IMG/VR virus record: IMGVR_UViG_3300032893_000048
Span: 1 to 59,936 of that record
Origin: a virus
Taxonomy: Duplodnaviria; Caudoviricetes
Length of the DNA: 59,936 bases
Reading direction: 5' to 3' (one strand)
A model generated the notes under the pieces. The model was given only the letters and a program-made list of their open reading frames with translations, ran no database searches and was not told the origin of the DNA. A program made the position numbers and the translations under genes. Shown in pieces: positions 20,701 to 42,668 of the stretch (positions within the stretch are counted from its first letter, which is position 1; each line of letters begins with the position of its first letter).

Positions 20701-20924
20701 GCAGCTACCACCTGGTCGTGGAAAATCTTGCCAAGGTCCTGGGCATCGAGGTCCTGCCCGGTGACACCTTGGTGCTTGTCAACGCCGATTCGTTCATCAA
20801 GGCGGAGTGGGGCGGCTCCAGTGGGTTTGTGGAAGGCAACGCAGTTGTCATTCATATTGGCGCGCGCAGGTCGGTGTGGCATATACCTGCACGCATAGTT
20901 AAGCGTTACACCATCGAACAGTAA
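17733..20924 (+). CDS. Large virion fibre/adhesin-like protein (beta-helix-like N half, Gly-rich domain, 14-aa repeat stalk)
   Basis: MANRYWV.GSGTWD...HWSTSSGGAGG start; Thr/Ser/Gly-rich; D-periodic 14-mers from about 19359. Confidence 0.75.
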   Translation: MANRYWVPVAGSGSGTWDTSDTTHWSTSSGGAGGFAPPTSSDTAIFDANSGTGTVTVSSAVANTVNLSASSILTFVSSGVTCSGAFTGKAAVSFGPALTMSGTGNLTSNGMTLPSLTINGSSITVTLQDDLNVSGTLTLTKGSISAGSHNVTCANFSSSNTNTRTINLGTGTWNLTGTGTVWDVSTTTGLTVTRNSGGAGTIKLSDTSTTARTFAGGGKSYSNLWITGSGNSTTTLTGSNLFTDILIDAAPRTVTFPASSTTTYNTLRTRATATAAITLNSSSSGTAASLSNNKGYTTFWDYCSIKDIHSVQSSVCYAGTHSTNVSGNANITFTNPPNALTGNQTITSSGMYWWTATADGTLKSELWGAGAQGNTDTEAVQGGAGGAYSKVNAYPVNNYYSYFVYIVAAGAVNNVADGTAYPTFLETPLTQCAYAGNGGDNLGLSNGGIGDVVYNGGSGVGCGGGSSAGTASNGTDSTAGSDSGAVGPTGSGPGGDGDSSGSGNGSNGVAPGGGGGGSYDMTGGLGAQGKAILTFTASGGGTTVYSDIRIPDSWASLINADIKMPIAEILGIQADLRTAIAQLATARLDAVATDAWVQIVATSLRIATDLLSTINADRTIPIEFISSSVTITSDLRVAIDNLAAMTRDLRNAIDNTELARADLLEPIANLLVVADNLVLPRDAAGTTRSDLQDPFAALGTVAPSGSVRFDWVGRTTDDFVVSTEELLNARRDSMMAMENLQTARTDLKLLVAWLTSINADQRLPVEWVGAAGINAYVAVPYDWVTPLRRDLTVPIDATLAARTDVVTAQEHMIRTYNDERGTIEFLQQARQDGRVAFDYPLALTEDSRIVIERLGALHDDPRFNLENLQTARVDDRIPFENQGGLGAHSDVVMPLDWTSKVIVDAVVRRDNTALLFVDEKVAIETLKVASPVDTTFRFAFGRDVHQDAKVLMEWLGISQFSSDSKLAFDWTSPVRGDARLNIEATIAAGGSYHLVVENLAKVLGIEVLPGDTLVLVNADSFIKAEWGGSSGFVEGNAVVIHIGARRSVWHIPARIVKRYTIEQ

Positions 20925-20940: not shown

Positions 20941-21957
20941 ATGTCTGTGCAAGCAACTGATCTTGTCGCCTACGGCTCGGCTTCGATGCCGGATGACGAC
21001 ACCGGTACTAACATCGGCGGCGCCGTCTCCAGCGGTAGCAACCTCATCCGCATGGTTTTTGACGACATCACGCCCAGCGGCAACGTCCAGGTCGTATCCA
21101 GCGCCACGGGTGACACCACCCAGTCGGTTGCGGTCTCGGGTCGTGACGCCTCAGGTGTGCTGATCAGCGAAACCAAGACCCTTAACGGTCAGACCGCCGT
21201 GGCGATGACCACCAACACGACCTGGGAGCGCCTGCTCAAGGCCGTCAAGTCTGCCACCACCACGGGCGACGTCGCGGTGGAATCTGCCACGGCGGTGCGC
21301 ACGGGGACGGCGCAGGCCGGCACGTCGACCTCCATCACGCTGGACTCGGGCGCCTCGGGCACCGACGACGCCTACAAAGACATGATCATCCGCATCACGA
21401 GCGGCACCGGTGCGGGCCAGATTCGCAAGATCAGTCAGGTCGGCTCGGTGGCTTACACGGGTTCCACCAAGGTGGCCACGGTCGATCGCGCGTGGGGCAC
21501 GACCCCGGACAGCACGTCGGTGTTTCGCATCTCACATGGCATGTACTTCGAGAAGGCGCCGAACGAGGTCTTCCAGCTGCGTCGTCCGTTCTACAACTCG
21601 TCGGCCGATGTGGCGGGTGGGTCAGCCAAGACCTACTACGAGAAGATCTTCCTGACCAACAACAACTCCTCGTTGGCGCTGACCGCGGCCACCATCGCGT
21701 TGCAGGCCGATACGTCGGGTTACGTGAGCTTTGCCCTGGAATCATCGTTGAACGGCACGGATACCAACGGCAGCGGCAACAACCGTCAGGTGGCGCCCAG
21801 CGGCTACACGTTCAACACGACCACCAAGAACGTGGCGAACTCGCAGAACCACACCAACGGCGCCGGCCAGGGCGTGTGGCTCAAGCTGGCCCTGCCGGCT
21901 GGCGCAGCTGCGGCGAAGAACACCTTCACGCTGCGTGAGTCGGGTACCACGACCTAA
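20941..21957 (+). CDS. Virion structural protein (decoration/fibre base)
   Basis: TGTAQAGTSTSITL...DDAY...ITSGTGAGQ.RKI...YTGSTKVATV module; strong RBS. Confidence 0.7.
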   Translation: MSVQATDLVAYGSASMPDDDTGTNIGGAVSSGSNLIRMVFDDITPSGNVQVVSSATGDTTQSVAVSGRDASGVLISETKTLNGQTAVAMTTNTTWERLLKAVKSATTTGDVAVESATAVRTGTAQAGTSTSITLDSGASGTDDAYKDMIIRITSGTGAGQIRKISQVGSVAYTGSTKVATVDRAWGTTPDSTSVFRISHGMYFEKAPNEVFQLRRPFYNSSADVAGGSAKTYYEKIFLTNNNSSLALTAATIALQADTSGYVSFALESSLNGTDTNGSGNNRQVAPSGYTFNTTTKNVANSQNHTNGAGQGVWLKLALPAGAAAAKNTFTLRESGTTT

Positions 21958-21969
21958 GGACTGTGAGCC

Positions 21970-22296
21970 ATGAGCAACCCGACCGTGCTGGTTAAATTCG
22001 CGAGTGCCGCGCCGCTCTTCAACATCGACCTGACAGCCTTGCTGAACGGTCGGACCATAGATCATCTGATCGAGTTGGTCGCGTTGAACGACGACGAGAA
22101 CACCCTGACGATCGGTGATGTGGTTATCAACGACACGCCTGTCGTGTTCGATGACGGCCAGGTCGCCCCAGTGCGGTCGGTTTTCCAATTAACGATCGGG
22201 GACGGCACCCCTGGCATGATCTACGAGCTAGCAGGCCAGTTCGTCATGTCAGGCGGTTACCCCGATGAATTTCGCGTGCTGCTGGAGGTTCTCTGA
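21970..22296 (+). CDS. Hypothetical structural protein
   Basis: 108-aa beta-rich ORF coupled to the portal gene. Confidence 0.6.
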   Translation: MSNPTVLVKFASAAPLFNIDLTALLNGRTIDHLIELVALNDDENTLTIGDVVINDTPVVFDDGQVAPVRSVFQLTIGDGTPGMIYELAGQFVMSGGYPDEFRVLLEVL

Positions 22297-25200
22297 TGCC
22301 CGGGCTAATCAAACGACTCGCTGACTCGACCAGGTATGTGCTGGCTGGGTCCAACCCGCTTGGTAAGGCGGCAAGTGAGCCGGTAAGCTTCACGGATCGG
22401 GTAACCGAGGCCACGCGCTACGTGGTTGACGGCATCCAGCCGGTGTCCTGGTTCTCGCCGGCCCAGCCGATGGAACCGGTGGCCCAGCAGGCGATCGGCC
22501 GCCAGTTCGACTACCCCGTCGGCTACAACCTGCGTATTACCCCACGGCAGGAGGAGGCGATCAGCTTCCCTCAGCTGCGCTCGCTGGCCGATAGCCATGA
22601 CATCACGCGGCTGCTCATCGAGACCCGTAAGGACCAGATGGTCAAGGTGCCGTGGAACATCATCTACCGCGACAGCCAGAAGAACCTGGACGACAACTCC
22701 AAGGACACCCGCATCCAGGAGGTGCTGGCCTTCCTGCGCATGCCGGATCGCATCAACACGTGGCAGAAGTGGTTGCGGGCCCTCATGGAGGACATGCTGG
22801 TCATCGACGCCGCCACGGTCTATCCTCGCTTCACGAAGGGCAAGAAGCTCTACTCGTTGGACCTGATCGACGGCGCCACCATCAAGCGGGTGCTGGATGA
22901 GACCGGCCGCGTGCCGATGCCGCCGAGCCCTGCATACCAACAGGTGCTCAAGGGCCTCGGGGCCGTCGACTACTCCGCCGACGACCTGATCTACGCGCCG
23001 CGCAACATTCGGACGAACCGCATCTACGGGTACTCACCCGTCGAGCAGATCATCATGACGATCAACATCGCCCTGCGCCGGCAGGTCCACCAGCTGCAGT
23101 ACTACACGGAAGGCAGCCTACCGGACCTGATCTTCACAGTGCCGGATTCGTGGACCACCGACCAGCTGGCCGAGTTCCAGGAGAACTGGAACATGGAGCT
23201 CGAGGGCAACACCGCGGCCCGGCGCAAGACCCGCTTCGTGCCGGACGGCACCAAGCCGCTGAACATCAAGGATGCGATCCTTAAGGACGAATACGACGAG
23301 TGGATCGCCCGTGTGTGCTGCTACTGCTTCAGCGTGCCGCCCACCGCCTTCGTGAAGCAGGTCAATCGATCCACATCTGAGTCGCTCCAGCAGGCGGCCC
23401 TGGAGGAAGGTCTCTATCCGCTCATGGCCTGGGTCAAGGACCTGATGGACATGATCCTGTGGCGCTACTTCGGCTACGATGACCTCGAGTTCGAATGGAA
23501 TCAGGAGAAGACCATCGATCAGGTCGAGCAGGCCACGATCGACAAGACCTACGTGGAGGCTGGCATCTGGTCGATCGACGAGGTGCGGGACCGCCAAGGT
23601 AAGCGGATGCTGGGGATCGGCAACATGATCATCACCGGGTCCGGTCCGGTCATGCTCAAGGACTTCACCGATGAGGCCCTGGACCAGCAGGCCAAGGAGG
23701 AGGAAGCTAACCAGGCGGCCGCCCTGCAGGCCGGGCCTCAGACGACGGCTCAGAATGAGCCGGGGACAACCGAGGTGACGCCAGGTGAACCGGGGCAGGC
23801 CAAGCCTGGGGTAACGCAGCCCAAGGGTGCCGCTCCCCAGAAGGCACCTCAGCCGGCCAAGCCGGCGGTGACCAAGGTGGACGACCAGGCCCACCAGGCG
23901 GCCACGAGTCCGTTGAACACCCGACCCGATCCGACCCCGGCCCAGATTCAGGCCGGCAACTATAAGAAGGGTCATGTGCAGCTGAACGGACTGCGGATTG
24001 CTATCGAGAACCCGCGTGGTTCTCAGCGGAGCGGGGTGGCAGCGGATGGCAGCACCTGGACCACCACGATGAACGACCACTACGGCTACATCAAGGGGTT
24101 CCGTGGAGCGGATGACGACTACGTGGATGTCTTCCTCGGCGCGAGGTGTGAAGATGCTGACTGCCCTGTACACATTATCAATCAGCTTGACCCTAGCACT
24201 GGCGATTTTGATGAGCACAAGGTGATGCTGGGCTACAGCTCGCCTGAGCAGGCCCAGATCGCGTATGCGATGAACTACTCGGACTACGCCACCGCGATCG
24301 ACCGCATCGGTAGCGTGAAGACGATGTCGCTGGACGACTTTAAGGACTGGCTTCGGCGAAGCTCAAATGACGAAGCCGCTAAGATGAGCAAAGGCGATAC
24401 GCCTGGGCATGACTTTCATGGGAATCAATATACCGCTGGCGAGGTTGCCGCTGTGAAGGAGTACCAGTCGGGCATGTATAACAGCGATGTCGGTGGCTAC
24501 GCCAACCTGCAGGGTATGCTTCGCACCGGCCAGCCTAAGTTCCCGCATGCGTGGGACGAGGCGCGTGGTCAGACGCACCTTGAGAACCTCAAGTCAGCGT
24601 TTGACAAGACGTCGACTGAGAAGGACACCACCGCCTACCGTGGCGTGCGGATCGAACGCGGCCAGCAGTCTGATCTTCTGACCGCCAAGGTCGGATCGAT
24701 CCTGACCGACAAAGGTGTGACGTCCACCTCCACCAGCAAGGACGTGGTGGCAAGCAAGTTCTCGAACCCGTTGAATCGGTCTGATCAGATCGTGCGGATG
24801 GAGATAAAGGTCCCAGCGGGCTCAAAAGCCATCGACATCGACCATGTCGCCGGCAAGGTTGGTGAGAAGGAGCTGGCACTGGCCCCGAACGCACGGCTGC
24901 AGGTGACCGGCCGCAGCGAGCGGAATGGCGTGATCCACCTGAAGGCCACCATGCTCCACGATGCAAAGAAGATGGCCAAGGCGGCGCCGAAGGCGATCAA
25001 CCGCACCCGCCCGGCGACGCTGAAGGCGAAGAAGGCCATTGAGGACGCGACGAAGAAGGTCTTCAAGAAAACCGCTAAGAGCGTGGCCGCTCAGCTGAGG
25101 TCCAAGCTCAAGAAGGCCCTCATCAAGGCAGATGATGTCGAGATGGTGCTGGCAAGCCTCGACCTGAGCGACCTCCAGGACCTGGGCCCGCAGCTACAAC

Positions 25201-25814
25201 GCATCTACGAGGAGTTGGGTCGGGACGGGGTGATGCAGGCACTGGTCCAGCTCAAGGAGATCGGCTACACGCCCACCACCGAGGAGGAAGCGTCAGTCAT
25301 CGAGCAGGCCAACTCGGCTGCCGTGACCTGGGCCCGCCAGCGCGCCGCGACCCTCGTGGGCCGCCATATCAACGAGGACGGTGAGATCGAGGAGGCGGTG
25401 CGGTCTGAGTATCAGATCGAGGAGACCACACGCAGCATGCTCCGCAGCCTGATCACCCGGGCGCTGGACGAGGGCACGACCCCGGCTGACCTCGCGCAAC
25501 AGCTCAGCGACGCCAGCGTGGCCGAGGACTTCCCCTTCAGCGATGCCCGCGCCACGACCATCGCCCGCACCGAGACGGCCTTCGCTGATGTCGCGGGGAA
25601 CATGGCGACCTACCGCAGCACCGGTGTGGTGGCCGGCAAGCGCTGGATTACCGCCGGCGATGACCAGGTTTCTGAGGACTGCGACGCCAACCATGAGCAG
25701 GGTGTCGTGGACCTGGAGGATGAGTTCCAAGGGGGCGTGGATGCCCCACCCCAGCATCCAAATTGCCGGTGCGACGTTGTGCCGGTGCTTGCATCTGATA
25801 CGGAGGAATCCTGA
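22296..25814 (+). CDS. Portal protein fused to an inorganic-pyrophosphatase-like domain, an ADP-ribosyltransferase and MuF (SPP1 gp7-like)
   Basis: Portal YGYSPVE, FSVPP, SIDEVR; InPase-like NYKKGH...IENPRGS.RSG...HYGYI...DVFLG...HKVMLG; ART YRG...STS...EKE; MuF IARTET...KRW...PPQHPNCRC. Confidence 0.9.
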   Translation: MPGLIKRLADSTRYVLAGSNPLGKAASEPVSFTDRVTEATRYVVDGIQPVSWFSPAQPMEPVAQQAIGRQFDYPVGYNLRITPRQEEAISFPQLRSLADSHDITRLLIETRKDQMVKVPWNIIYRDSQKNLDDNSKDTRIQEVLAFLRMPDRINTWQKWLRALMEDMLVIDAATVYPRFTKGKKLYSLDLIDGATIKRVLDETGRVPMPPSPAYQQVLKGLGAVDYSADDLIYAPRNIRTNRIYGYSPVEQIIMTINIALRRQVHQLQYYTEGSLPDLIFTVPDSWTTDQLAEFQENWNMELEGNTAARRKTRFVPDGTKPLNIKDAILKDEYDEWIARVCCYCFSVPPTAFVKQVNRSTSESLQQAALEEGLYPLMAWVKDLMDMILWRYFGYDDLEFEWNQEKTIDQVEQATIDKTYVEAGIWSIDEVRDRQGKRMLGIGNMIITGSGPVMLKDFTDEALDQQAKEEEANQAAALQAGPQTTAQNEPGTTEVTPGEPGQAKPGVTQPKGAAPQKAPQPAKPAVTKVDDQAHQAATSPLNTRPDPTPAQIQAGNYKKGHVQLNGLRIAIENPRGSQRSGVAADGSTWTTTMNDHYGYIKGFRGADDDYVDVFLGARCEDADCPVHIINQLDPSTGDFDEHKVMLGYSSPEQAQIAYAMNYSDYATAIDRIGSVKTMSLDDFKDWLRRSSNDEAAKMSKGDTPGHDFHGNQYTAGEVAAVKEYQSGMYNSDVGGYANLQGMLRTGQPKFPHAWDEARGQTHLENLKSAFDKTSTEKDTTAYRGVRIERGQQSDLLTAKVGSILTDKGVTSTSTSKDVVASKFSNPLNRSDQIVRMEIKVPAGSKAIDIDHVAGKVGEKELALAPNARLQVTGRSERNGVIHLKATMLHDAKKMAKAAPKAINRTRPATLKAKKAIEDATKKVFKKTAKSVAAQLRSKLKKALIKADDVEMVLASLDLSDLQDLGPQLQRIYEELGRDGVMQALVQLKEIGYTPTTEEEASVIEQANSAAVTWARQRAATLVGRHINEDGEIEEAVRSEYQIEETTRSMLRSLITRALDEGTTPADLAQQLSDASVAEDFPFSDARATTIARTETAFADVAGNMATYRSTGVVAGKRWITAGDDQVSEDCDANHEQGVVDLEDEFQGGVDAPPQHPNCRCDVVPVLASDTEES
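24390..24431 (+). repeat. KGDTPGHDFHGNQY tag, copy 1 (precedes the ART domain)
   Basis: Protein-level repeat, 4 copies in two head genes. Confidence 0.9.
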
Positions 25815-32056: not shown

Positions 32057-32833
32057 ATGCAAATCGGTTTCGCATCTGGTATCATCTGGGCACGTCCGAG
32101 CACGGACGTCACTGGTACCGCCATCGCCAACCCCACTGTGCAGAAGTTCGGCGCGTTGCAGGACATCTCGCTGGACATCAGCTTCGATACGAAGATGCTG
32201 TATGGCGGCTATCAGTTCCCCATCGATGTGGCGCGCGGTAAAGGCAAGGCCACCGCTAAGGCCAAGGCTGCCCTGGTCAACGGCAACCTGCTGAACGCGC
32301 TTGTGTTTGGCGGCACCACCAATGCCGGCACGGCGCTTTATGACTATCAGGATACCGCCGGCCTGCCAATCCCGGCGTCCAGCCCGTACACCCTGACCAT
32401 CGCGCCGCCGTCCACCGGCACCTTTGCGAAGGACTTGGGTGTGCGCAACGCCACCACGGGCCTGCCGCTGACCCGCGTGGCCACGCCCTCGGTAAGCGGA
32501 CAGTACTCGGTGAACGAGTCGACCGGTGTTTACACGTTCTACAGCACCGACGCGAATACCAAGGTCTACATCGATTACCGCTACTCGGCAACGATCACGA
32601 ATGCGCTTAACTTCGACATTAACAATCAGCCGATGGGCAACGCGCCGCGGTTCGGCATTGACCTGGCTATCCCGTATCAGGGTAAGCAACTTACCTTCTC
32701 GTTCCCGAATTGCATGTCGAACAAGTTGTCATTCGCAACGAAGTTGGATGACTACATGATTCCTGAGTTCGACATCGACATCTTCGCTGACCCCACCACT
32801 AACAAGTTTGGTACCGTCAGCACGGCCGAATAA
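32057..32833 (+). CDS. Major tail tube protein
   Basis: Position before chaperones and tape measure; FGALQDISLDISF...PIDVARGKGK. Confidence 0.85.
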   Translation: MQIGFASGIIWARPSTDVTGTAIANPTVQKFGALQDISLDISFDTKMLYGGYQFPIDVARGKGKATAKAKAALVNGNLLNALVFGGTTNAGTALYDYQDTAGLPIPASSPYTLTIAPPSTGTFAKDLGVRNATTGLPLTRVATPSVSGQYSVNESTGVYTFYSTDANTKVYIDYRYSATITNALNFDINNQPMGNAPRFGIDLAIPYQGKQLTFSFPNCMSNKLSFATKLDDYMIPEFDIDIFADPTTNKFGTVSTAE

Positions 32834-33305: not shown

Positions 33306-33508
33306 TCACCATCACCGGATGGACGTGGGAGTATATTGATGAGTTCATGACCATCCCGCGGCTGGATGCGTTAATGAGTTACTGGAAGCAGCAACCTCCG
33401 ACCCATGCTCTGATGGCGGGGTATGTGGGGTATAAACCACCCTCAGAGTTCAAGATTGCGACTGAGGAAGAGTTGGCAGCATTCTTAACAGGATTTGGCA
33501 ATGTCTGA
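33242..33508 (+). CDS. Tail assembly chaperone -1 frameshift extension (GT)
   Basis: -1 frame open for 88 codons from G GGG GAA: GRGGAADNGPIDWDHIYAHL...GWTWEYID...YWKQQPPTH. Confidence 0.8.
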   Translation, partial: GGRGGAADNGPIDWDHIYAHLITITGWTWEYIDEFMTIPRLDALMSYWKQQPPTHALMAGYVGYKPPSEFKIATEEELAAFLTGFGNV

Positions 33509-36212
33509 TAGTGACCAAGAGGTATCAGTAAAGGTCGCAGCTGAGGTAGGTGACCTCAACGCTGGCATGGCTTCAGCTGCTGAGGCTGTCAGTGCGTTCA
33601 CCACCTCGACCACGGCAGCCTTTGACAACCTAGCGGCTGACACCTCAGCGCAGATTGCGGAGATTACCAACAACGTTAACTCAGCTTTCGATGACCTGGG
33701 TGCCAGCTCCGCACATCTGGATGAAGTAAGTAAGAGCCTAGATGACATGGGCAACCATGCCAAGGACGGCACGGAGGAGCTCAAGGAACATGGCGAGGAG
33801 GCATCAGGGCTCTTCGGCAAGTTGAAGGTGTCGGCTGGCGAGTTCACCGAGGCGTTCAAGGAGCAACTTGAGGGGCTTAAGGGCCCCTTTGAGTTCGTGG
33901 AGGAGCACCTGAAGGCACTTGCTGCGATCCTCGCCGGTGGAGCCATCTTCAAGAAGTCCGTTGATGAGGCGGTGAACTTCACGCGTGAATCCTACAACAT
34001 GGCCCGGCAGATGGGCATCACGGCTGATCAGGCATCCGCCCTGAAGGTCGCGATCGAGGATGCCCACGTGACCACCGAGGCCTATATGTCAGCCAATATG
34101 CGGTTGACACGGCAGGTCAAGAACAACGAAGAGGCCCTCAATGCCCTGGGGCTGGTGACCCGTGATGCCAACGGCCACCTGCTCGACCAGAACACCATCA
34201 TGCTCAACGCGATCGAGTCTCTCAAGGACTACAAGGAGGGTACCGATCGCAACCTCGTGGCGCAGCAGTACTTCGGTCGCGGTGGTGCCAGCAACGCTGA
34301 CATGCTCAACATCACCAAGGAGAAGTTGGATGAGGCCCGTGAGGCGCAGGATCGCTTCAACCTGACCGTCGGTGAGGAGGCCCTGGCCAGCTTCCAGGAG
34401 TATCGCAACTCCATGCAGGATGCTCATGATGTGCTTGATGGCATCGGGGTAACGATCGGTCGAGCGGTCATGCCGGCCCTCACACAGTTTGCCAACTGGT
34501 TTGTCAGCGTCGGCCCCACCGCGATCCTGGTGGTCAAGGGCGCCATCGGCGGCTTCATGGCGGCCCTGGACGGCATCATCTTGACGGTGAACCTGATCGT
34601 TGACATTTTCAAAACCGAATTCCGTAATATCGTAGCAGCGGTGGCTGATGCCGCGGTGGCCATCAACGACCTCTTTCATGGTGATGTCGCCGGGGCCATC
34701 GCTGCCGGCAAATCGTTTGGCAGCGATATCGTCGATTCCTGGAAGCAGGGTTGGGATGAGGCCGTCAAGGATGCGGAGAAGACCCAGACCCAGCTTGCCA
34801 ACCTGTTCGGCAACCAGACCCCCATTACGCAGAAGAACGAGGGCAAGGAGTATCACAACCCCAAGGACAAGTCGAAGGCCGAGGAGGAGGGCAAGAAGGA
34901 ACTTGAGCAGCTGAAGCAGGAACTCGAGCAGAAGAAGCTGGCCACCGCCGACTTCCATCAGTGGACCCAGGCTGAGGAGGCCGCCTTCTGGCAGGAGAAC
35001 ATAAGTCGGGTGACCGCTGGCACCACCGCCCGCCTGGAGGCCGAGAACCTGGGCAACAAGGCCCGGCGGTCCATGACCGAGGAGGCCTACAAGCAGCACT
35101 TCGACGACATGAAGGCCTTCATGGAGCAGGAGCAGGAGGGCAGCCTCGAGCGCCTGCAGACCGCCGAGCTGATCGCCAAGGGGATCGGTGAAACCTACGG
35201 CGAGGACAGCAAGCAGTACGCCGCGGCTATGAAGGACCTTGAGAAGGAAGCCAAGGCCCACGTCGATTATATGGCGAAGCTGGATGAGGCGCAGGCCGTC
35301 TATGAGCGCGACCATCAGTTGGCCATGCTGGACCTTGAATCTGAGGCCATCAAGCAGCAGAAGAACCTGGATATCATTAATGCCGAGGATGAACTGCAAC
35401 GGACGATGGACGTCGAGGAGAAGAAGTTTGAGATTAAGCGTGAGTTCCTACAGAAGCAGCTTGCTGCGCAGAAGACCGGGACTATCGAGTACGCTAACAC
35501 GCTGAATGAGATCAAGAAGCTTGACGATGCCTTTGGTTTGACCGTGGTGAAGAACTCAAATGATCGCGCCAAGGCCGTCAGTGACAGCTACAAGACGCTG
35601 GTGGGTGGGGTGACCAACGCCATTCACGGGTCCGTTCAAGGCATCCTCCAGGGGACCCTGACCGTTTCGCAGGCCTTACATAACTTCACCACCGCGGTCC
35701 TGGCTTCCTTTGCGGATATGGGCGCTCAGGTGGTGGCCAAGTGGGCTGAGAAGGAGCTCACCCAGACCGCACTGACCGCGGAGGGTGAGGCCACCCGCCA
35801 GGGCATCGAGGAAGCCGGGGCCATCCAAAGCGTGGCCATCGCCGCCTGGGCAGCGGTCAAGAAGATCGCCATCTGGGCTTGGCAGGCGGCCGTGGGTGCC
35901 TACACCTGGGCCGTGGATAAGCTGGGTCCCTGGGGCGCGGCTGGGGCGGCTGCCCTGGCCCTCGCCACGGTCTATGAGATCGGTTCCCATATCGCGGGTG
36001 GCTCAGGTGGCGGTGGAGGAGGTGGCTCGGTTGCCGGAGGGGGGACGGTAACGCCTAGTGCTCAGTCAAATGCTAACCAGACTGCCACCTCATCGACCTC
36101 AAACCAGCCGATAACCAACATCTACATCCAGGGTGACGTTGTCGATTACACCCAGCTGGCGCGGAAGCTCCGGCTGCCGAACCAATACACCACCACGGTT
36201 GATGCCATATGA
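33501..36212 (+). CDS. Tape measure protein
   Basis: About 900 aa, helical and Ala-rich, after the chaperones. Confidence 0.92.
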   Translation: MSDSDQEVSVKVAAEVGDLNAGMASAAEAVSAFTTSTTAAFDNLAADTSAQIAEITNNVNSAFDDLGASSAHLDEVSKSLDDMGNHAKDGTEELKEHGEEASGLFGKLKVSAGEFTEAFKEQLEGLKGPFEFVEEHLKALAAILAGGAIFKKSVDEAVNFTRESYNMARQMGITADQASALKVAIEDAHVTTEAYMSANMRLTRQVKNNEEALNALGLVTRDANGHLLDQNTIMLNAIESLKDYKEGTDRNLVAQQYFGRGGASNADMLNITKEKLDEAREAQDRFNLTVGEEALASFQEYRNSMQDAHDVLDGIGVTIGRAVMPALTQFANWFVSVGPTAILVVKGAIGGFMAALDGIILTVNLIVDIFKTEFRNIVAAVADAAVAINDLFHGDVAGAIAAGKSFGSDIVDSWKQGWDEAVKDAEKTQTQLANLFGNQTPITQKNEGKEYHNPKDKSKAEEEGKKELEQLKQELEQKKLATADFHQWTQAEEAAFWQENISRVTAGTTARLEAENLGNKARRSMTEEAYKQHFDDMKAFMEQEQEGSLERLQTAELIAKGIGETYGEDSKQYAAAMKDLEKEAKAHVDYMAKLDEAQAVYERDHQLAMLDLESEAIKQQKNLDIINAEDELQRTMDVEEKKFEIKREFLQKQLAAQKTGTIEYANTLNEIKKLDDAFGLTVVKNSNDRAKAVSDSYKTLVGGVTNAIHGSVQGILQGTLTVSQALHNFTTAVLASFADMGAQVVAKWAEKELTQTALTAEGEATRQGIEEAGAIQSVAIAAWAAVKKIAIWAWQAAVGAYTWAVDKLGPWGAAGAAALALATVYEIGSHIAGGSGGGGGGGSVAGGGTVTPSAQSNANQTATSSTSNQPITNIYIQGDVVDYTQLARKLRLPNQYTTTVDAI

Positions 36213-37369
36213 TGAGCCGCCCGCAATTGCTGATCAGCGACCCCACCATCATGGGTGGCGTCGTTGCATCCAGCACCTTGGATGGCTACCCAGCCTCCAA
36301 TTTGGCGGACAACCGTACCACCACGTTCTGGCGGTCGGCCAATACCGCTGATCAGTATTTGACCATCTCGACGACCGCAGTCATCAACGCGATCGGGTTA
36401 GCAGGGCACAACTTTACCGGAGCGACAGTTTTGGTGCAGGTCTCTAACGACGGCTTCGTCTCCGACGTCGTGACCTGCACCACTTTTTTAGTGATGTCCA
36501 CTGACCCCGTCTTAAAAACCTTCACCTCGGTGGCTGGTAAGACTGCCTGTCGGGTGAAGATCAGTGGCCTGACCGCTGCTGCGGCGCTTGCCATCCTGGC
36601 CCTGGGCAGCTATGTGGAGTTTGACCACCCCATCGAGGATGATTACGCCCCTGCTGATCAGACGGTGAATACCTCGTTGCCAACTAATACAGGTGGGAAC
36701 AACACCTCGAATGTTGGCCAACTTGTGCAACCTCATTATTTGTTCAGTGCATTAAAGACTGACATTACGTTCCCCTTGGTAGGTGATACGTGGTGGCGTG
36801 TGGTGTTCCAACCGCTGTGGCGGTCGTGGCTTGGCTTGGGGATGCCGTTTTTCTGGAAACCATCGCCTGATATCTTCCCAGATGATTCATATCTGTACCG
36901 GGTAGACGATGGGTTCACCATCTCACCGAAGCACTGGGGTCTGGGTTATCGTCAGCTGCAGATGACCTTTGTGGGAGTAGGCAACATCCAGGATCGTGCT
37001 GTTATTGAGTTGATTCGTATCGATTCTGATACACCGTGCTCAACGGAAAACCTGTTGGTGGTTCGAGTTGACTTCAACTTGCCACTTGATAATACTAACA
37101 GGGGTCTTGTGCACGCAGATATTATGATGCGTATGGAGTCACTGAGCCCAGCTACCTCGTCGTTAATCACAATTCCAATTTCGAATGCTGCTGTGGTCGT
37201 AGGTGACATCAGAATGAATGACAGTTGGCAGCAACTAACCTCAAGCGACATGAGGATCAACTTCAGTGAAAGTCTAAAAACTTACACTGATCTGATTTTG
37301 AATAATGACTACCGGGTGGCAGATACTAGCTTCTCGTTTGTAGAACTACTTCTTCATATGGATGCGTGA
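36209..37369 (+). CDS. Distal tail-like protein with 14-aa repeat extension and C-terminal LLLHMDA strand
   Basis: Follows the tape measure; discoidin-like ASNLAD...FWRS; paralog of 40629-41453. Confidence 0.7.
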   Translation: MMSRPQLLISDPTIMGGVVASSTLDGYPASNLADNRTTTFWRSANTADQYLTISTTAVINAIGLAGHNFTGATVLVQVSNDGFVSDVVTCTTFLVMSTDPVLKTFTSVAGKTACRVKISGLTAAAALAILALGSYVEFDHPIEDDYAPADQTVNTSLPTNTGGNNTSNVGQLVQPHYLFSALKTDITFPLVGDTWWRVVFQPLWRSWLGLGMPFFWKPSPDIFPDDSYLYRVDDGFTISPKHWGLGYRQLQMTFVGVGNIQDRAVIELIRIDSDTPCSTENLLVVRVDFNLPLDNTNRGLVHADIMMRMESLSPATSSLITIPISNAAVVVGDIRMNDSWQQLTSSDMRINFSESLKTYTDLILNNDYRVADTSFSFVELLLHMDA

Positions 37370-37374
37370 TATGA
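37340..37374 (+). repeat. 35-bp direct repeat, copy 1 (30/35 identical to 38169-38203)
   Basis: gtagaactacttcttcatatggatgcgtgatatga. Confidence 0.85.
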
Positions 37375-38198
37375 CTTCGATCATGTTCGGCAGTGGCACA
37401 ATGTGGTGGTATCAGACCACTGGGCCTGATGGGTCACTACTGAATACACCTATTGCGCAAACCTTTGGTCTGCTGCAAGATGTCACCATCGACTGCTCAT
37501 TCGATGCCAAGATGATGTATGGCGGGCTTCAAAATGCGATTGACATTGGTCGCGGAAAAGGAAAGTTGACTGGTAAGGCAAAATTTGCTCAATTAAATGC
37601 TAACATTTTCAGTGCGCTTTTCTTTGGCCAATCAGCGATCGATGGGCTGCTGAACGACTACAACGACCTCAGCGTCGGTACAGCCATCCCGAGCTCGCCT
37701 TATCAGATCACCGTGTCGCCGCCGTCAAGCGGGATGTACATGAAGGACCTTGGGGTGCGATATGTCGCCTCAGGTGTCGCCCTTATGCGGACAGGTGGGA
37801 CCCCTGGTCCCAGTCAGTATTCGGTGGACGAGGGTACTGGGACCTACACATTCAACACCGGCGCAGTGGGATTGAAGATAAACATCGATTACCAGTACTC
37901 GCTTCCAGGTGGTAAGACCATTCCGTTGACCAATCAATTGATGGGCTACACCCCACAATTCGGGGTGGATTTGACATTGTCCTACCTTGGTAAGATAACC
38001 ACGCTCTGCTTCATGAATTGCCAAAGTAGCAAGTTATCACTTGCCTCGAAGTTGGATGACTACACCTTGATTGACTTTGAATTTGATATCTTGCCTACAT
38101 CAACTGGTGTGCTTTATTCAATTAGCAGTACAGATATTGGGGCTCCTGGCGAACCTAGCTTCGACCACGTAAAACTACTCCTTCATATGGACGCATAA
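37371..38198 (+). CDS. Second tail-tube paralog with C-terminal LLLHMDA strand
   Basis: Colinear similarity to 32057-32833 (FG.LQD...D.SFD.KM.YGG, RGKGK, KLS.A.KLDDY). Confidence 0.88.
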   Translation: MTSIMFGSGTMWWYQTTGPDGSLLNTPIAQTFGLLQDVTIDCSFDAKMMYGGLQNAIDIGRGKGKLTGKAKFAQLNANIFSALFFGQSAIDGLLNDYNDLSVGTAIPSSPYQITVSPPSSGMYMKDLGVRYVASGVALMRTGGTPGPSQYSVDEGTGTYTFNTGAVGLKINIDYQYSLPGGKTIPLTNQLMGYTPQFGVDLTLSYLGKITTLCFMNCQSSKLSLASKLDDYTLIDFEFDILPTSTGVLYSISSTDIGAPGEPSFDHVKLLLHMDA

Positions 38199-38203
38199 TA
38201 TGA
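38169..38203 (+). repeat. 35-bp direct repeat, copy 2
   Basis: gtaaaactactccttcatatggacgcataatatga. Confidence 0.85.
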
Positions 38204-38802
38204 GCTTTATTGATTCTTCAAGTTTTGCACGGACACCGACTATAACTGGCAGTCCAGCTATAGTTTCAGACTCAGATGCGATTGGTGGAAAATGTGGAGA
38301 ATTTTCTGGTAGTAGCCAGTACCTAACCTATACCAATACTGCTTTTCTTTTGTCTGGTCTTTTCACCATAGAGTTTCGATTAAAGGTTCTTGCCTACCCA
38401 TCTGGGTCTGAAGGGTACCCATTCGGGTTTAACGATGCGCAGGATTACTTCGTGGTAAATGGAGTAGGAACTCCTGGGCAGTGGGCATTCGTGTTTTTAG
38501 GCGGAAGCATGGGTTCCGGAAGTGATAGCAGCAAGTTTATTACACTAAATCAATTCTATGATTTTGCAATTTGTCGTGATGGCAGTAATACAATATATGT
38601 CTTCAAAGATGGTAATCTTATAATTACGCACTCTAGCAGCACCGTTCGAACAGGTACGCCATCCATGTATATCGGTTCTGCTGGGCCATCATTTGCAAGT
38701 TCTGGTGTAAATTGTCGACTGGATGAATTTCGTTTCACTCAAGGCGTATGCAGATATACAGGAAATTATACGCCACTCTCTGTGCCTTTCCCGGATTCTT
38801 AA
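38200..38802 (+). CDS. LamG/concanavalin A-like lectin domain protein lacking its first strand
   Basis: FTIEFR...AICRDG...YVFKDG...LDEFRFTQGVCRYTGNYTP..VPFPD; low GC. Confidence 0.85.
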   Translation: MSFIDSSSFARTPTITGSPAIVSDSDAIGGKCGEFSGSSQYLTYTNTAFLLSGLFTIEFRLKVLAYPSGSEGYPFGFNDAQDYFVVNGVGTPGQWAFVFLGGSMGSGSDSSKFITLNQFYDFAICRDGSNTIYVFKDGNLIITHSSSTVRTGTPSMYIGSAGPSFASSGVNCRLDEFRFTQGVCRYTGNYTPLSVPFPDS

Positions 38803-38805
38803 GCC

Positions 38806-40632
38806 ATGACAGCCGCCTACGACACTGAGTTGCAGAAGCTAAGCCGCCAGCCCTCGACGCTGGTGGTGATTTCGCTTGATCGGTGCACGCGCACCTTCGG
38901 GTCGTCGCCGTGCCTCGCCACCGGGGCGCCGTGCTACAACACCTACCAGACGTGCAAGTACAAGGCGGCCTACAATGCCACGACCCAGGACTACAAGTTC
39001 TGTTGCAACACCACCACCCAACCGCTGCCGGGTCAGATCATTCGCCCGTACCTCATCGATGAGAAGTACGTGGCCCAGGAGATCAGCCCCTCAGAGGCCC
39101 TGACCATCAACCAGCAGGTGGACCTCACCATGCTGGAGGAGGATGACGACGACATCTGGGTCGACCCCTACCGGGTGAGCGCCACGCTGCGCAGCGCCCC
39201 GGGTGGAACGCAGGCGGTGGCGGCCCAGGGTGGCTTCTGGCGGAAGCTCCGGGCTCGGTCACCCAACTATATCAACCGAATGGTGACCATCAAGCACGGG
39301 TTCATCGTCCCGGGGTTCACCGAGGACGACTACAACACGGTCTTCACCGGGGTCTTCTATAACCTTCAGTTCGCCCCGGGTGAGGCGATCGTGTCGGTGA
39401 AGGGTCTGCTGGCCCTGACGGACCAGGACTACCCGACTAAGACCGACGGTAAGTTGGACGCTGCGATGCTCACTACCGACACGTCCTTGACATTGTCCTC
39501 CGGTACAGGGACCATCAGCGACGTGATCGGTCTCACCTCCCAGTATGACACCTCAGGTTATATTGTGATCGAGGGGGAGGTGATGAGCTACACCGGGGTT
39601 TCAGTGGACCTCGGGACTGGTCAGACGACCTTGACTGGCCTGACCCGCGGGCTCTACCAGGCATATGGGTGGACCGCGGCGGCGGCTCATGGTGCCACCG
39701 CGGAGGTTCAGCAGGCGTATGTTCTAAATGGTAACCCGTTGGACCTGATGGTAGCTCTACTTGAGAGCGCGGGCATTCCCAGTGGGAACATTGATACTAC
39801 ATTATTCGCCTCCGAACGTGACCTCTGGTTCAGCAGCACACAGTTCCTAGGCATCCTTGATCAACCGGTCAAGATCAAGGACCTGCTGCAGGAGCTCCGG
39901 GCTCAGACCAACACGGTAATTTGGCAGGGCGACGACCAGCTGATCAAGGTCAAGTTCCTGGGTCCGAACCAGCCTGGCAGCAGCTATCGCCTCATCACCG
40001 ACTCGAACAACCTTGTGAGCAACACCAACGGTTCGTCACTCACGATCGATGACAACAGCATCCAGCGCATCACACGAGCTAGTATTTACTACGATATCAT
40101 TGCCACGAAGGACATCTCAGACCCGTCCAACTTCCAACACGCGGCAGTCACCCTTGACGCTGAGGCTGAATCCGCCACGCTTTACAATGATGTGAAGGTG
40201 CGGACGCCCATGTATTCCCGCTGGGTGCGCACGGCGCTGCTTGGCGACGCCTATGGGCGGCTGATTTGCCAGAAGATCGTGGCTCGCTTTCGCGATGGCA
40301 ACCGGCTGATCACCTTCACGCTTGAGCTGAAAGATGAGGGGTTGGCACTCGGGGAGATATTCCAGCTACTCTCACAGGAAATTGTAGATAAGGACGGTGC
40401 CCCGGCCCTGAGTTACTTCATGGTGACCAGCAAAGAGCGAACCGGTCTTGGGACCATCCAATACAAGGCCGCGCAGGTCTCCAATATTAGTACTCGCAGC
40501 GCCTTCATTGCGCCAAGCACAGTTTCTAGGGACTACGACACGGCGACCGATGCTGATAAGCAGTACTGTTATATTGTAAGCGGAACGTCGCTCACCTTCG
40601 ATGATGGCACAGGACCATATCTAATCTCATGA
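38806..40632 (+). CDS. Tail tip / baseplate hub protein
   Basis: 608 aa; CTRTFG.SPC.A...CYNT..TC N-terminus; LTGLTRG...AAAH insert. Confidence 0.75.
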   Translation: MTAAYDTELQKLSRQPSTLVVISLDRCTRTFGSSPCLATGAPCYNTYQTCKYKAAYNATTQDYKFCCNTTTQPLPGQIIRPYLIDEKYVAQEISPSEALTINQQVDLTMLEEDDDDIWVDPYRVSATLRSAPGGTQAVAAQGGFWRKLRARSPNYINRMVTIKHGFIVPGFTEDDYNTVFTGVFYNLQFAPGEAIVSVKGLLALTDQDYPTKTDGKLDAAMLTTDTSLTLSSGTGTISDVIGLTSQYDTSGYIVIEGEVMSYTGVSVDLGTGQTTLTGLTRGLYQAYGWTAAAAHGATAEVQQAYVLNGNPLDLMVALLESAGIPSGNIDTTLFASERDLWFSSTQFLGILDQPVKIKDLLQELRAQTNTVIWQGDDQLIKVKFLGPNQPGSSYRLITDSNNLVSNTNGSSLTIDDNSIQRITRASIYYDIIATKDISDPSNFQHAAVTLDAEAESATLYNDVKVRTPMYSRWVRTALLGDAYGRLICQKIVARFRDGNRLITFTLELKDEGLALGEIFQLLSQEIVDKDGAPALSYFMVTSKERTGLGTIQYKAAQVSNISTRSAFIAPSTVSRDYDTATDADKQYCYIVSGTSLTFDDGTGPYLIS

Positions 40633-41453
40633 TAGCCAACAGCGAAATTCTATATGATAACCGCTTCGCGGACGCCGCACCGGTGGCCAGCTCAACGGCG
40701 GCAGGGTATGACCCGCGCTTCATCGCCGACTGGCGTGCTTACACCTATTGGGCGGCGACCTCGGCTGCCGATCAGACCATCACGGTGGACTGCGGCAGCG
40801 CGGCGTCGGCCGACACCCTGGCCCTTACTAACCATAATTTAGGTGGCGCGAAGTTGCTGGTGCAGGGGTCCTCAGATGGATCAACCTTCACCACGCTTAC
40901 CGGCATTGATATCGATGCTGATGACAGTATGGTGATTTACTGCAAGGTACCGAGCAGCAGCTACCGGTACTGGCGTATCAAGTTGGAAAATTTGTCGGTT
41001 GCCCCTTACATCGGCATCCTGGCGCTTGGCGTGGCATTGGTGATGAACCGCCCGCTGCAGGACGGTGAGTTCAGCCCCGCAGATGAGGCGGCTAACAACA
41101 TCACCAGCGTCTCCCGCTACGGTGATGTGCTGGGGGTGGTGCAGCTTGTGCGGGTCCTCACCACCACGTTAAACTGGACGGTAACCGACGCCTGGTACCG
41201 CAGCACTTTTATTGAGGCATGGTCGGTGCATCTTGGACAGTGTATTCCATTTTTCTTCGCCCCGGACCGCGAGAGCAATGATGTGGTGGACTCCTATTTT
41301 ACTGAGGTCCAACTTTTGCTGCATTTTGATAATATTACGCCTAATATGATCGAGGCTTATCTTTATCGAGTCGCCTCAGGTTCCACCCTAACGGCCAAGT
41401 TCAACACCTCGTACTTCAGAGACATTGCAATGTCGGTGGAAGGCGTGCTTTAA
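40629..41453 (+). CDS. Tail protein, paralog of 36209-37369, with internal LLLHFD strand
   Basis: Shares ASST..GY, ADQ..T, HN..GA..LVQ.S.DG, ILALG, PFF, YLYRV. Confidence 0.75.
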   Translation: MIANSEILYDNRFADAAPVASSTAAGYDPRFIADWRAYTYWAATSAADQTITVDCGSAASADTLALTNHNLGGAKLLVQGSSDGSTFTTLTGIDIDADDSMVIYCKVPSSSYRYWRIKLENLSVAPYIGILALGVALVMNRPLQDGEFSPADEAANNITSVSRYGDVLGVVQLVRVLTTTLNWTVTDAWYRSTFIEAWSVHLGQCIPFFFAPDRESNDVVDSYFTEVQLLLHFDNITPNMIEAYLYRVASGSTLTAKFNTSYFRDIAMSVEGVL

Positions 41454-41463
41454 CGGAGACTAT

Positions 41464-42336
41464 ATGGCGACTGATTCTGATTTTTCATCTGGCAACCAGA
41501 TACCTGATAGCGAGATTTCAGCAAGCAAGCCCGTAGATGATATCTTGATGGCTAAGATAAAGGCTCGGGATATTGAGTTGCTGGGGAGAATGAACCCGTT
41601 TGGGGGACCTTCCGCTGTAGATGCTGGGTCAGCTATCGGACATGGTGGAAATATAACTATTTCTGCCAATACAACGTTAGGTGGAGTACATTACTATACC
41701 AACTTCACCATTACTGGTGGAGTTACGGTAACTTCCAGCGGTCCTTTAATCATCTATGCATCTGAATCTATAAATATACAAGGTGAAATCAATGCTACAG
41801 GACAGGGTGCGCCTGCTCCTGACATGCATGTAGTAACTAATCCAGAAAATGGAATTTCAGCAACCGGCGGTGGATCCGTGGACTATGCAGGAGGTGGGAT
41901 TATATATGGAAATTACTCCATCATACCCGAAGGTACTTCCCCAATCACCGAGGGTGTTTCTGCCGCTTCTAATGCTGGGTTACTAGCTGCAATACTTGCA
42001 GACCCACTATCTGCGGTTAAGCATAAAGGTGGCGCAGCTGGTGCTGGAAACTTATATGTAATTTATGCCGCAGGAAGTGCTGGCGGTGGGATAATTATAC
42101 TAATCTCTCCCATAGTAAACTTAGCAGGTGGAAGTTTACTCGCAAAAGGTGTATCGGGCAATGCTGGCGGCGGTGCTGGGACAGGAGGCGGTGGTGGCGG
42201 TTTAATTTACATCGCTACCAAAGCATATACCGCCCCTACTACGCTCAGTGTTGCTGGCGGGACTGGTGGAACTGGCAGTGCCTTTAATGGTGGAAAAGGT
42301 GGTGATGGGATAATTCAGATAAATGTTTATTCGTAA
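41464..42336 (+). CDS. Gly-rich tail fibre/spike protein
   Basis: IPDSEI....PVD N-terminus; GGGGGG motifs; low GC. Confidence 0.7.
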   Translation: MATDSDFSSGNQIPDSEISASKPVDDILMAKIKARDIELLGRMNPFGGPSAVDAGSAIGHGGNITISANTTLGGVHYYTNFTITGGVTVTSSGPLIIYASESINIQGEINATGQGAPAPDMHVVTNPENGISATGGGSVDYAGGGIIYGNYSIIPEGTSPITEGVSAASNAGLLAAILADPLSAVKHKGGAAGAGNLYVIYAAGSAGGGIIILISPIVNLAGGSLLAKGVSGNAGGGAGTGGGGGGLIYIATKAYTAPTTLSVAGGTGGTGSAFNGGKGGDGIIQINVYS

Positions 42337-42356
42337 CCTAGAAGAAAGGTGTTACC

Positions 42357-42668
42357 GTGGGTGAAAACCATGGGTATGAAGGGGAGGAGCGTCGTCACAA
42401 CCGGGTCTGCCTGAGTGACGACGACCTAAGTCAAATAATCAACGAGGCGGCTGATGCGGCGGCGAAGCGGGCCGTGGCGGAGGCCACTGAGAAGTTGAAA
42501 GCGATGTCGATCATCTCGGCTAAGGAAACCCTGGCCGAGCAGGACCGGCAGCGGTTTCAAGCGGTGGGTGCCGCGGTCATCGGTAAGCTTCACTGGGCCG
42601 TCGGCGTAATAGTCTTATATATCGCATATGTGGTGTACAATAACTGGCCCGGTGTGAAGGGCCACTAA
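42357..42668 (+). CDS. Membrane protein (holin/antiholin candidate)
   Basis: YEGEERR N-terminus and one C-terminal TM. Confidence 0.55.
   Translation: MGENHGYEGEERRHNRVCLSDDDLSQIINEAADAAAKRAVAEATEKLKAMSIISAKETLAEQDRQRFQAVGAAVIGKLHWAVGVIVLYIAYVVYNNWPGVKGH

Follow-up and report, generated by a model that had tools for sequence, protein, structure and literature searches.

At its tail-tip genes, the siphophage recorded as IMG/VR entry IMGVR_UViG_3300032893_000048 (Duplodnaviria; Caudoviricetes) encodes a LamG-type jellyroll domain that is without its first β-strand, and copies of this strand are found on three other proteins of the same locus. The window analyzed here is the full virus record of 59,936 bases, a complete siphophage genome of 59.9 kb (completeness 100%, CheckV). 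Its late operon has the order terminase, portal fusion, adaptor, tube protein, chaperone-like open reading frames (ORFs), tape measure, A, B, LamG, D, E, a Gly-rich ORF and lysis genes. The ORFs designated A, B, LamG, D, and E are central to the following, together with the copies of the 15-residue strand, which are called tags for brevity:

32057–32833, plus strand: putative major tail (tube) protein, paralog of B (phrog_8234, E = 6.3e-77), located ahead of the chaperone-like ORFs and tape measure gene.
33495–36212, plus strand: tape measure protein (phrog_2854 and phrog_8462, both PHROG tape measure families).
36209–37369, plus strand: ORF A, tail protein of the A/E family (phrog_11633; weak F5/8 type C match).
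37322–37369, plus strand: tag copy 1 at the C-terminus of A, DTSFSFVELLLHMDA, and the stop TGA; the junction 11-mer lies at 37364–37374 and the ATG of B follows 1 nucleotide (nt) on.
37371–38198, plus strand: ORF B, tail-tube-like protein that ends in a flexible linker and tag copy 2 (phrog_8234, E = 2.4e-55).
38151–38198, plus strand: tag copy 2 at the C-terminus of B, EPSFDHVKLLLHMDA, and the stop TAA; the ATG of the LamG ORF follows 1 nt on, in the +1 frame.
38200–38802, plus strand: LamG ORF, Laminin_G_3-like jellyroll without its first strand, 200 residues (identified by its phmmer relatives).
38806–40632, plus strand: ORF D, tail fiber or hub-like protein (phrog_11439, E = 4.7e-60); right edge of the low-GC insert.
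40629–41453, plus strand: ORF E, second protein of the A/E family, with tag copy 3 in frame (phrog_11633; F5/8 type C match above threshold).
41289–41349, plus strand: tag copy 3, DSYFTEVQLLLHFDN (the tag itself at 41289–41333), and a junction-like 11-mer.

The LamG ORF starts with MSFIDSS and has no alternative in-frame start codon after the stop at 38170–38172. In an alignment with ten LamG proteins, all ten (10/10) show the stretch D..f..V.LLLH.DG, followed by a short loop, ahead of the F.DSS point where the LamG ORF starts. At its C-terminus, the ORF keeps the family-conserved residues through RYT.NYTP..PFPDS, like the aligned members (RYT.NFTP..PFP). Judged by this alignment, the LamG ORF is without exactly the first strand of its family and otherwise whole. 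The original prediction, which had described intact domains as beginning and ending with these two motifs, agrees with all ten proteins, and the coordinates and peptides it gave for A, B, E, and the LamG ORF are exact.

Relatives of the LamG ORF are abundant: phmmer identifies 5959 at E values up to 1e-3, mostly repeats in giant virus proteins, and single-domain LamG matches reach about 1e-18 to 1e-20. The Pfam domain PF13385 is found in 10 of the 11 aligned proteins, with the LamG ORF as the sole exception; alone it has no Pfam match at E values up to 1 and stays below the PF13385 gathering score. Its ESM Atlas neighbors are PF13385 clusters whether ranked by features or by structure, in a comparison that has predictions on both sides. 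The domain as modeled in the read-through product described below superposes on the solved domain 4 of AbnA with a Z score of 20.9 and a root-mean-square deviation (rmsd) of 2.5 Å over 190 residues. Further matches to ConA-like folds, including bacterial neurotoxin binding domains and trans-sialidases, reflect the shared fold only, and the label “lectin” that the module had been given denotes only a predicted fold likeness to a sugar-binding domain. A rescan of 367 LamG domain instances of the family revealed 183 with a strict strand motif, 131 with a variant, 45 without a match to the regular expression and eight situated at the protein N-terminus. Some of the 45 motif-less instances are variants missed by the expression and others directly follow the previous repeat; the eight N-terminal instances may represent shortened gene calls or further split cases. 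The first strand is thus usual in the LamG family, not universal, and it need not be indispensable. Several LamG proteins (P0275, P0245, P0144, P0206, P0264, P0227, and P0233) begin within or just past the strand motif, for example with M-F-T-D-F-K-D-S-S.

The strand that is absent from the LamG ORF is present at the C-terminus of A and of B and, as a third copy, within a 22-residue insertion of E. Across all six frames of the 59,936-base genome, the regular expression [LIVM]3-H-[MFLI]-[DN] matches at these three places only. In addition, the 11-mer GCNTRATATGA occurs three times, as opposed to 0.12 expected occurrences, each time just downstream of a strand copy; in E it lies 8 nt further downstream than in A and B and is read in frame as T-P-N-M. 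The strand copies are more than a chance pattern, and the observation is confirmed. All three have identical boundaries, running from the domain start to the junction, and the motif residues are intact in each. At the nucleotide level, the junctions of A and B differ in 13 of 53 nt as well as in their stop codons (TGA vs. TAA), which speaks against errors and against very recent copying. Their tags show eight differing codons, of which three at conserved motif positions are synonymous and five at family-variable positions change the residue, a pattern one would not expect under neutral decay. The tag of E matches that of B at 21 of 45 nt (47% DNA identity), with all motif residues kept. Taken as they stand, the sequences suggest that either the copies were selected as peptides after separating, or they derive from different LamG genes that were selected until recently. 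A and B also share the derived junction stop-T-ATG-A; the split form must therefore have persisted long enough to diverge, or it exists in more than one lineage.

How the tail of B relates to the LamG fold was modeled by joining B and the LamG ORF into one chain, reading TAA-T as a single step (TAAT = N) with a +1 shift. The AlphaFold2 (AF2) model of this read-through product has a mean predicted local distance difference test (pLDDT) score of 80.9, with a disordered linker at residues 255–260 and a strand at residues 267–272 with a pLDDT of about 80. Residues 260–470 superpose on the whole jellyroll of 5hon_A (Z = 20.7, rmsd 2.4 Å, 189 residues; Z scores of 20.7–20.9 across the solved domains). 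Since the model forms a strand at residues 267–272 and the superposition extends from residue 260, the tail of B is, in the predicted structure, the canonical first strand of the LamG jellyroll. The claim that the free LamG ORF is without exactly this strand, and that the tail of B supplies it, is thus borne out by the alignment, the read-through model and the superposition.

All three carriers of the strand are tail proteins according to PHROG, fold and locus comparisons, as had been proposed. B shares 47% identity over 242 residues with the tube gene at 32057–32833 (E = 2e-71), both belonging to phrog_8234. In Foldseek searches, the model of B matches tail tube proteins, namely 8xkn_B (3.3e-8), YSD1 6xgr_A and phage Chi chains, with E values of 3e-8 to 1e-5. 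Sequence and predicted fold thus identify B as a tail-tube-protein paralog. Its C-terminal extension of 20 residues is an add-on, found in none of the 119 proteins among the homologs listed, and is preceded by the linker residues 255–260 with pLDDT values below 50. The phage accordingly contains two tail-tube-family genes, the second of which (B) is found past the tape measure gene, in the interval from an A/E-family gene to D. For B and the tube gene at 32057–32833, gene conversion was considered and rejected, as identity is flat at 45–65% with no conversion tract.

A and E are paralogous members of one protein family, about 252 residues in length. A consists of a core of about residues 1–258, an extra domain of about 113 residues and tag copy 1; neither alignment nor an ESM Atlas search with residues 255–386 provided usable relatives of this extension. 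The insertion of E is absent from A and from all six other aligned family members (6/6), which upholds its description as an insertion in the original prediction. The AF2 model of E alone is too poor to place it (mean pLDDT 47.2).

Close relatives of the locus were sought by blastn with 36209–41453 among 50,697 phage records, without a match, and by single-protein locus searches of IMG/VR with B, D, and P0238, which found none. Profile searches yielded 80 tube-family loci and 36 A/E-family loci. In 25 of the 36 related loci, the A/E-family gene is followed downstream by a homolog of D, which directly abuts it in 23, and a tape measure gene is recognized by phmmer directly upstream of the A/E-family gene in three of the 36. 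A second tube-family copy between the A/E-family gene and D occurs at none of the 36 related A/E–D loci. The phage departs from this usual layout in the extension of A, in the insertion of B and LamG, and in having E as an additional family member behind D.

The closest LamG domain among the 149 best relatives belongs to P0238, a metagenomic protein of 469 residues with 35–36% identity. It is the sole one of these 149 that also holds an A/E-family core, covalently fused and with the strand in place, and in light of this fusion the terminal strand of A looks like the stump of a similar one. P0238 combines the same two families as the phage locus and shares with it the stretches TIEFRLK and DEFRFT.G.CRYT.NYTP. 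In contrast to the phage, however, the strand (…VVLLLHMDG…) is part of one unsplit polypeptide in P0238, which has neither a B nor additional tags. A metagenome scan with a profile of the LamG ORF and P0238 added nine distant loci (27–38% identity), in which the strand is in place except in the first domain of one ORF (L135).

One further split was found in an 81-kb viral contig with a GC content of 32% (G001; loci L151 and L193). Here, one ORF, which contains LamG repeats and is about 910 residues long, terminates in …LLLHMDA-TAA; the junction lies at G001:C1:58011-58034 on the minus strand (L193 corresponds to G001:C1:50000-62000). It is followed by 10 nt containing AAGGA and then by the ATG of a multi-LamG ORF of about 1387 residues, which is in the +1 frame and starts M-N-I-I-D-S-S. 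As in the phage, one ORF ends with the strand and the next begins with M-x-hydrophobic-I-D-S-S, and the break is in the same register at both ends. The two cases differ in the 10-nt spacer with AAGGA, in that both G001 partners are giant multi-LamG proteins, and in that no extra tags are seen in G001. The LamG domains of the two viruses share 29.6% identity, and the split thus appears to recur independently in an unrelated virus, as one ambiguous parallel; G001 may also merely represent a broken giant gene. All three split junctions (A, B, and G001) have an Ala codon before the stop (GCR at 37364–37369 and 38193–38198 in the phage). Among 241 intact motifs, H-[MF]-D is followed by Gly in 191 and by Ala in three.

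Pattern scans, which cover CTN leucine codons only, revealed no additional examples. LLLHMD-x-stop-N-ATG gave 16 matches in viral sequences, all of them AT-rich noise; LLLHMD-x-TRR gave one real case, G001, among 50 matches in IMG/VR; LLLHFD-x-TAA gave no real case among 53 viral matches, and LLLHMDA-TRR none among four matches in GTDB genomes. Open-access papers searched for donor-strand complementation or LamG in phage tails contain nothing on a split LamG, and none of those retrieved on donor-strand complementation concerns phage tails.

The locus is a mosaic in base composition, in line with what had been predicted for the LamG module. The LamG ORF and the other inserted parts have a GC content of 40–50%, compared with 59.2% genome-wide, and the low-GC stretches 37010–37640, 37910–38809, and 41240–42400 start or stop at or near the tags. 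GC rises sharply to 62–67% at the first codon of D. The genes A, B, LamG, D, and E abut or overlap, all without the GGAG sites found ahead of the head genes, and no strong ribosome-binding site precedes the LamG ORF. These tail-tip genes appear to be translationally coupled, and the simplest reading of B and LamG is two polypeptides. The stretch 41240–42400 forms a second low-GC block (37–54%) which runs from the E tag and spans the last 55 codons of E and the Gly-rich ORF of 303 residues. The likelier start of the latter is the ATG at 41464, with GGAG in front.

Elsewhere in the late operon, the ORF at 22296–25814 (1172 residues) joins a portal domain (residues 48–527) to a C-terminal head-morphogenesis (minor head protein) domain; its middle region matches large phage proteins annotated as DarB-like or endolysin-associated. 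Between the terminase and portal genes, the ORFs at 17733–20924 (1063 residues) and 20941–21957 (338 residues) have no PHROG match at E values up to 1e-4.

The best reading of the locus, which we hold tentatively, is that the split LamG domain is translated separately and comes together in trans on B, perhaps also on A and E. Ribosomes terminating on B would re-initiate at the LamG ORF, and the nascent jellyroll would take the tail of B as its missing first strand. The LamG domain would then hang non-covalently on the B ring in the distal tail; A and E would carry additional or past docking sites. Such an arrangement could have originated from covalent fusions of A/E-family proteins and LamG like P0238, rearranged by imports of low-GC modules, and the break between strands 1 and 2 would have been kept because the domain was still assembling. 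A broader form of this proposal, which we regard as rather doubtful, takes the 15-residue strand as a natural docking tag: one exchangeable, separately translated LamG domain would complete its jellyroll with the tag and so snap onto any tail protein displaying it, whether C-terminally (A and B) or in a loop (E). If so, the same-register split and Ala-stop ending of G001 would reflect a mode of linking virion proteins that recurs.

Several results weigh against assembly in trans. The split LamG is rare in the scans described above, and none of the 80 tube-family and 36 A/E–D loci has tags, LamG, or a B-like second tube gene beside A. In G001, the boundary of the preceding ORF also changes frame. 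The tags are located at GC breakpoints, as expected of recombination scars. The LamG ORF alone is modeled confidently in the ESM Atlas, with a predicted template modeling (pTM) score of 0.87, and 45–53 of the 367 family domains lack the first strand, as assessed by the regular expression or their N-terminal position. A natural example is the multi-LamG protein of 854 residues at L135:6843-9404, whose first domain is without the strand; it has an AAGGAG site of its own, and the upstream ORF bears no tag. Given the confident Atlas model and the family domains that lack the strand, the LamG ORF may not need complementation. The interpretation offered in the original prediction is upheld in part: the missing strand, the low-GC mosaic module and the three tail-protein carriers hold, and docking in trans, with one LamG domain serving three positions, would be a further proposal. 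A complex prediction of E with the LamG ORF gave an interaction prediction score from aligned errors (ipSAE) of 0.52 (0.43–0.57 in three runs; 0.00 for the best of three controls), a weak grade without an interface given, at which a pass is oftener wrong than right unless the guess is already likely. The pLDDT of the partners was at least 87 in these runs, and contacts agreed in at least 81%. Because P0238 fuses an A/E-family core and LamG covalently, the predicted score could reflect a native contact between core and LamG as in that protein.

Many of the same observations would follow if the strand copies were non-functional recombination scars of LamG fusions broken by low-GC module swaps, an alternative that is quite possible if less probable. 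Crossovers would have occurred at the conserved strand-coding DNA and at the TRATATGA junction, and the LamG ORF would work alone via other contacts or be a young pseudogene. The edges of the low-GC stretches at or near the tags and the GC jump at the start of D are consistent with this view, and the 11-mer common to all three sites is a possible microhomology. The nearest LamG relative, P0238, is a covalent fusion with an A/E-family core, the usual order in related loci leads from the A/E-family gene to D without B, LamG, or tags (0/36), and some LamG domains are natively strandless, with the LamG ORF modeling well alone. Scars would, however, leave several features unaccounted for. The motif residues are intact in three copies despite the 13 of 53 nt that differ between A and B and the 47% DNA identity of E, and the boundaries are identical in all three. 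Given the derived stop-T-ATG common to A and B, the split form was either duplicated or retained in two lineages, with the AT-rich LamG ORF remaining open over its 200 codons. The break in G001 also falls in this register, and a ribosome-binding site precedes the downstream ORF there. The internal third copy in E counts against scars as much as it does against the frameshift considered next.

A programmed or tolerated +1 frameshift at the stop, GCA-(T)AAT, would produce a covalent B–LamG protein (…HMDA-N-MSFIDSS…), the copy on A being a fossil or the site of a rare A–B fusion. This possibility, already raised in the original prediction, is unlikely. It agrees with the frames, since LamG is in +1 of B, B is in +1 of A, and the downstream ORF of G001 is also in +1, as well as with the stop-T-ATG junctions; the read-through product is a complete and well-modeled domain, and the Ala codon that precedes the stop at all three split junctions is rare in intact domains (3/241). 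Moreover, B is a paralog of tube proteins, the class that is extended in this way in SPP1 and Listeria phages, as described in the available text of two studies (PMC6316719; PMC5009743). There, a +1 shift at the stop in CCC_UAA extends the SPP1 tail tube protein gp17.1 by a C-terminal adhesion domain to give gp17.1*, at a 3:1 ratio (PMC6316719), and the tube protein Tsh of the Listeria phages PSA, A118, and A500 is extended by a +1 shift at CCC_UGA (PMC5009743). Both systems resemble the phage in that a tube-type gene is followed by a surface β-sandwich domain of adhesion type in the +1 frame, with the switch at the stop codon. The known sites, however, allow the tRNA to re-pair from CCC to CCU (PMC6316719; PMC5009743), whereas at GCA_TAA and GCG_TGA the tRNA of the last codon would face CAU or CGU after the shift, with no base pair kept and no slippery codon present. 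The site also varies in its nucleotides between A and B, with wobble changes upstream, and no Shine-Dalgarno-like stimulator lies upstream of it. Unlike the SPP1 and Listeria cases as far as the available text describes them, where the break lies ahead of an added FN3 or immunoglobulin (Ig)-like fold, the break in the phage lies inside a LamG domain, after strand 1. The downstream ORFs have their own ATG at the junction, in G001 together with AAGGA, which would be needless for a pure extension, and the two further strand copies on A and E are left unexplained.

That the stops are assembly or sequencing artefacts, the true genes being in-frame fusions, is highly improbable. The genome is a single metagenomic contig, and its only full-length public match, contig X1 (depth 9.7), probably stems from the same sample; a second run, X2, has only two short identical pieces, which lie inside E and off the junctions, and none of the matching runs listed is an RNA run. 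X1 was nevertheless assembled independently and is identical over 36900–41500 (4.6 kb, 0 differences), in a comparison of contigs in which minority variants are invisible. Neither junction lies in a homopolymer, and two junctions of the same architecture with different stops and synonymous differences are unlike independent errors. An in-frame fusion of A and B would, in addition, make little sense. Transcriptional slippage was rejected as well, as there is no homopolymer at either junction.

Separate translation followed by strand complementation also has counterparts outside phages. In the chaperone-usher pilins, a β-sandwich lacking one strand is completed by a strand of another polypeptide through donor-strand complementation and exchange. 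The LamG ORF is likewise encoded without one strand of a β-sandwich fold; its completion in trans is a proposal here. In the pilins, the C-terminal strand of an Ig-like fold is missing, and a chaperone and an usher are needed, whereas the phage locus lacks the N-terminal strand of a LamG jellyroll and would involve no chaperone, the donor being the terminus or a loop of a tail protein. Donor-strand complementation and exchange are also described for TasA (PMC9674648, available text). Among phages, a short conserved peptide mediates a modular and exchangeable attachment of receptor-binding modules in the Klebsiella phages KP32, K11, and KP34. There, by contrast, the peptide belongs to the protein being attached and is bound by a dedicated branching domain; it does not form part of the fold of the incoming domain (PMC13352976).

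With an evidence base of one metagenomic genome and one ambiguous parallel (G001), the locus may be a snap-on attachment system or just a set of gene-shuffling scars. If it consists of scars only, it is a clear record of LamG module shuffling at a conserved strand-coding sequence, and the Ala-stop ending common to two unrelated viruses still needs explaining. The split LamG is a new variation on known ways of decorating phage tails.

Phages are known to equip their tail and head proteins with adhesion domains in two ways, in-frame fusion and frameshifting. If the proposed assembly is true, a domain that is interrupted within its own fold, and whose missing strand several virion proteins display, would constitute a third route of adding domains. 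It would also provide protein engineers with a natural non-covalent tag-and-catcher pair on a lectin-type scaffold. For the phage itself, the decoration of the tail would be changed by swapping one small gene, and its position by moving a tag of 45 nt.

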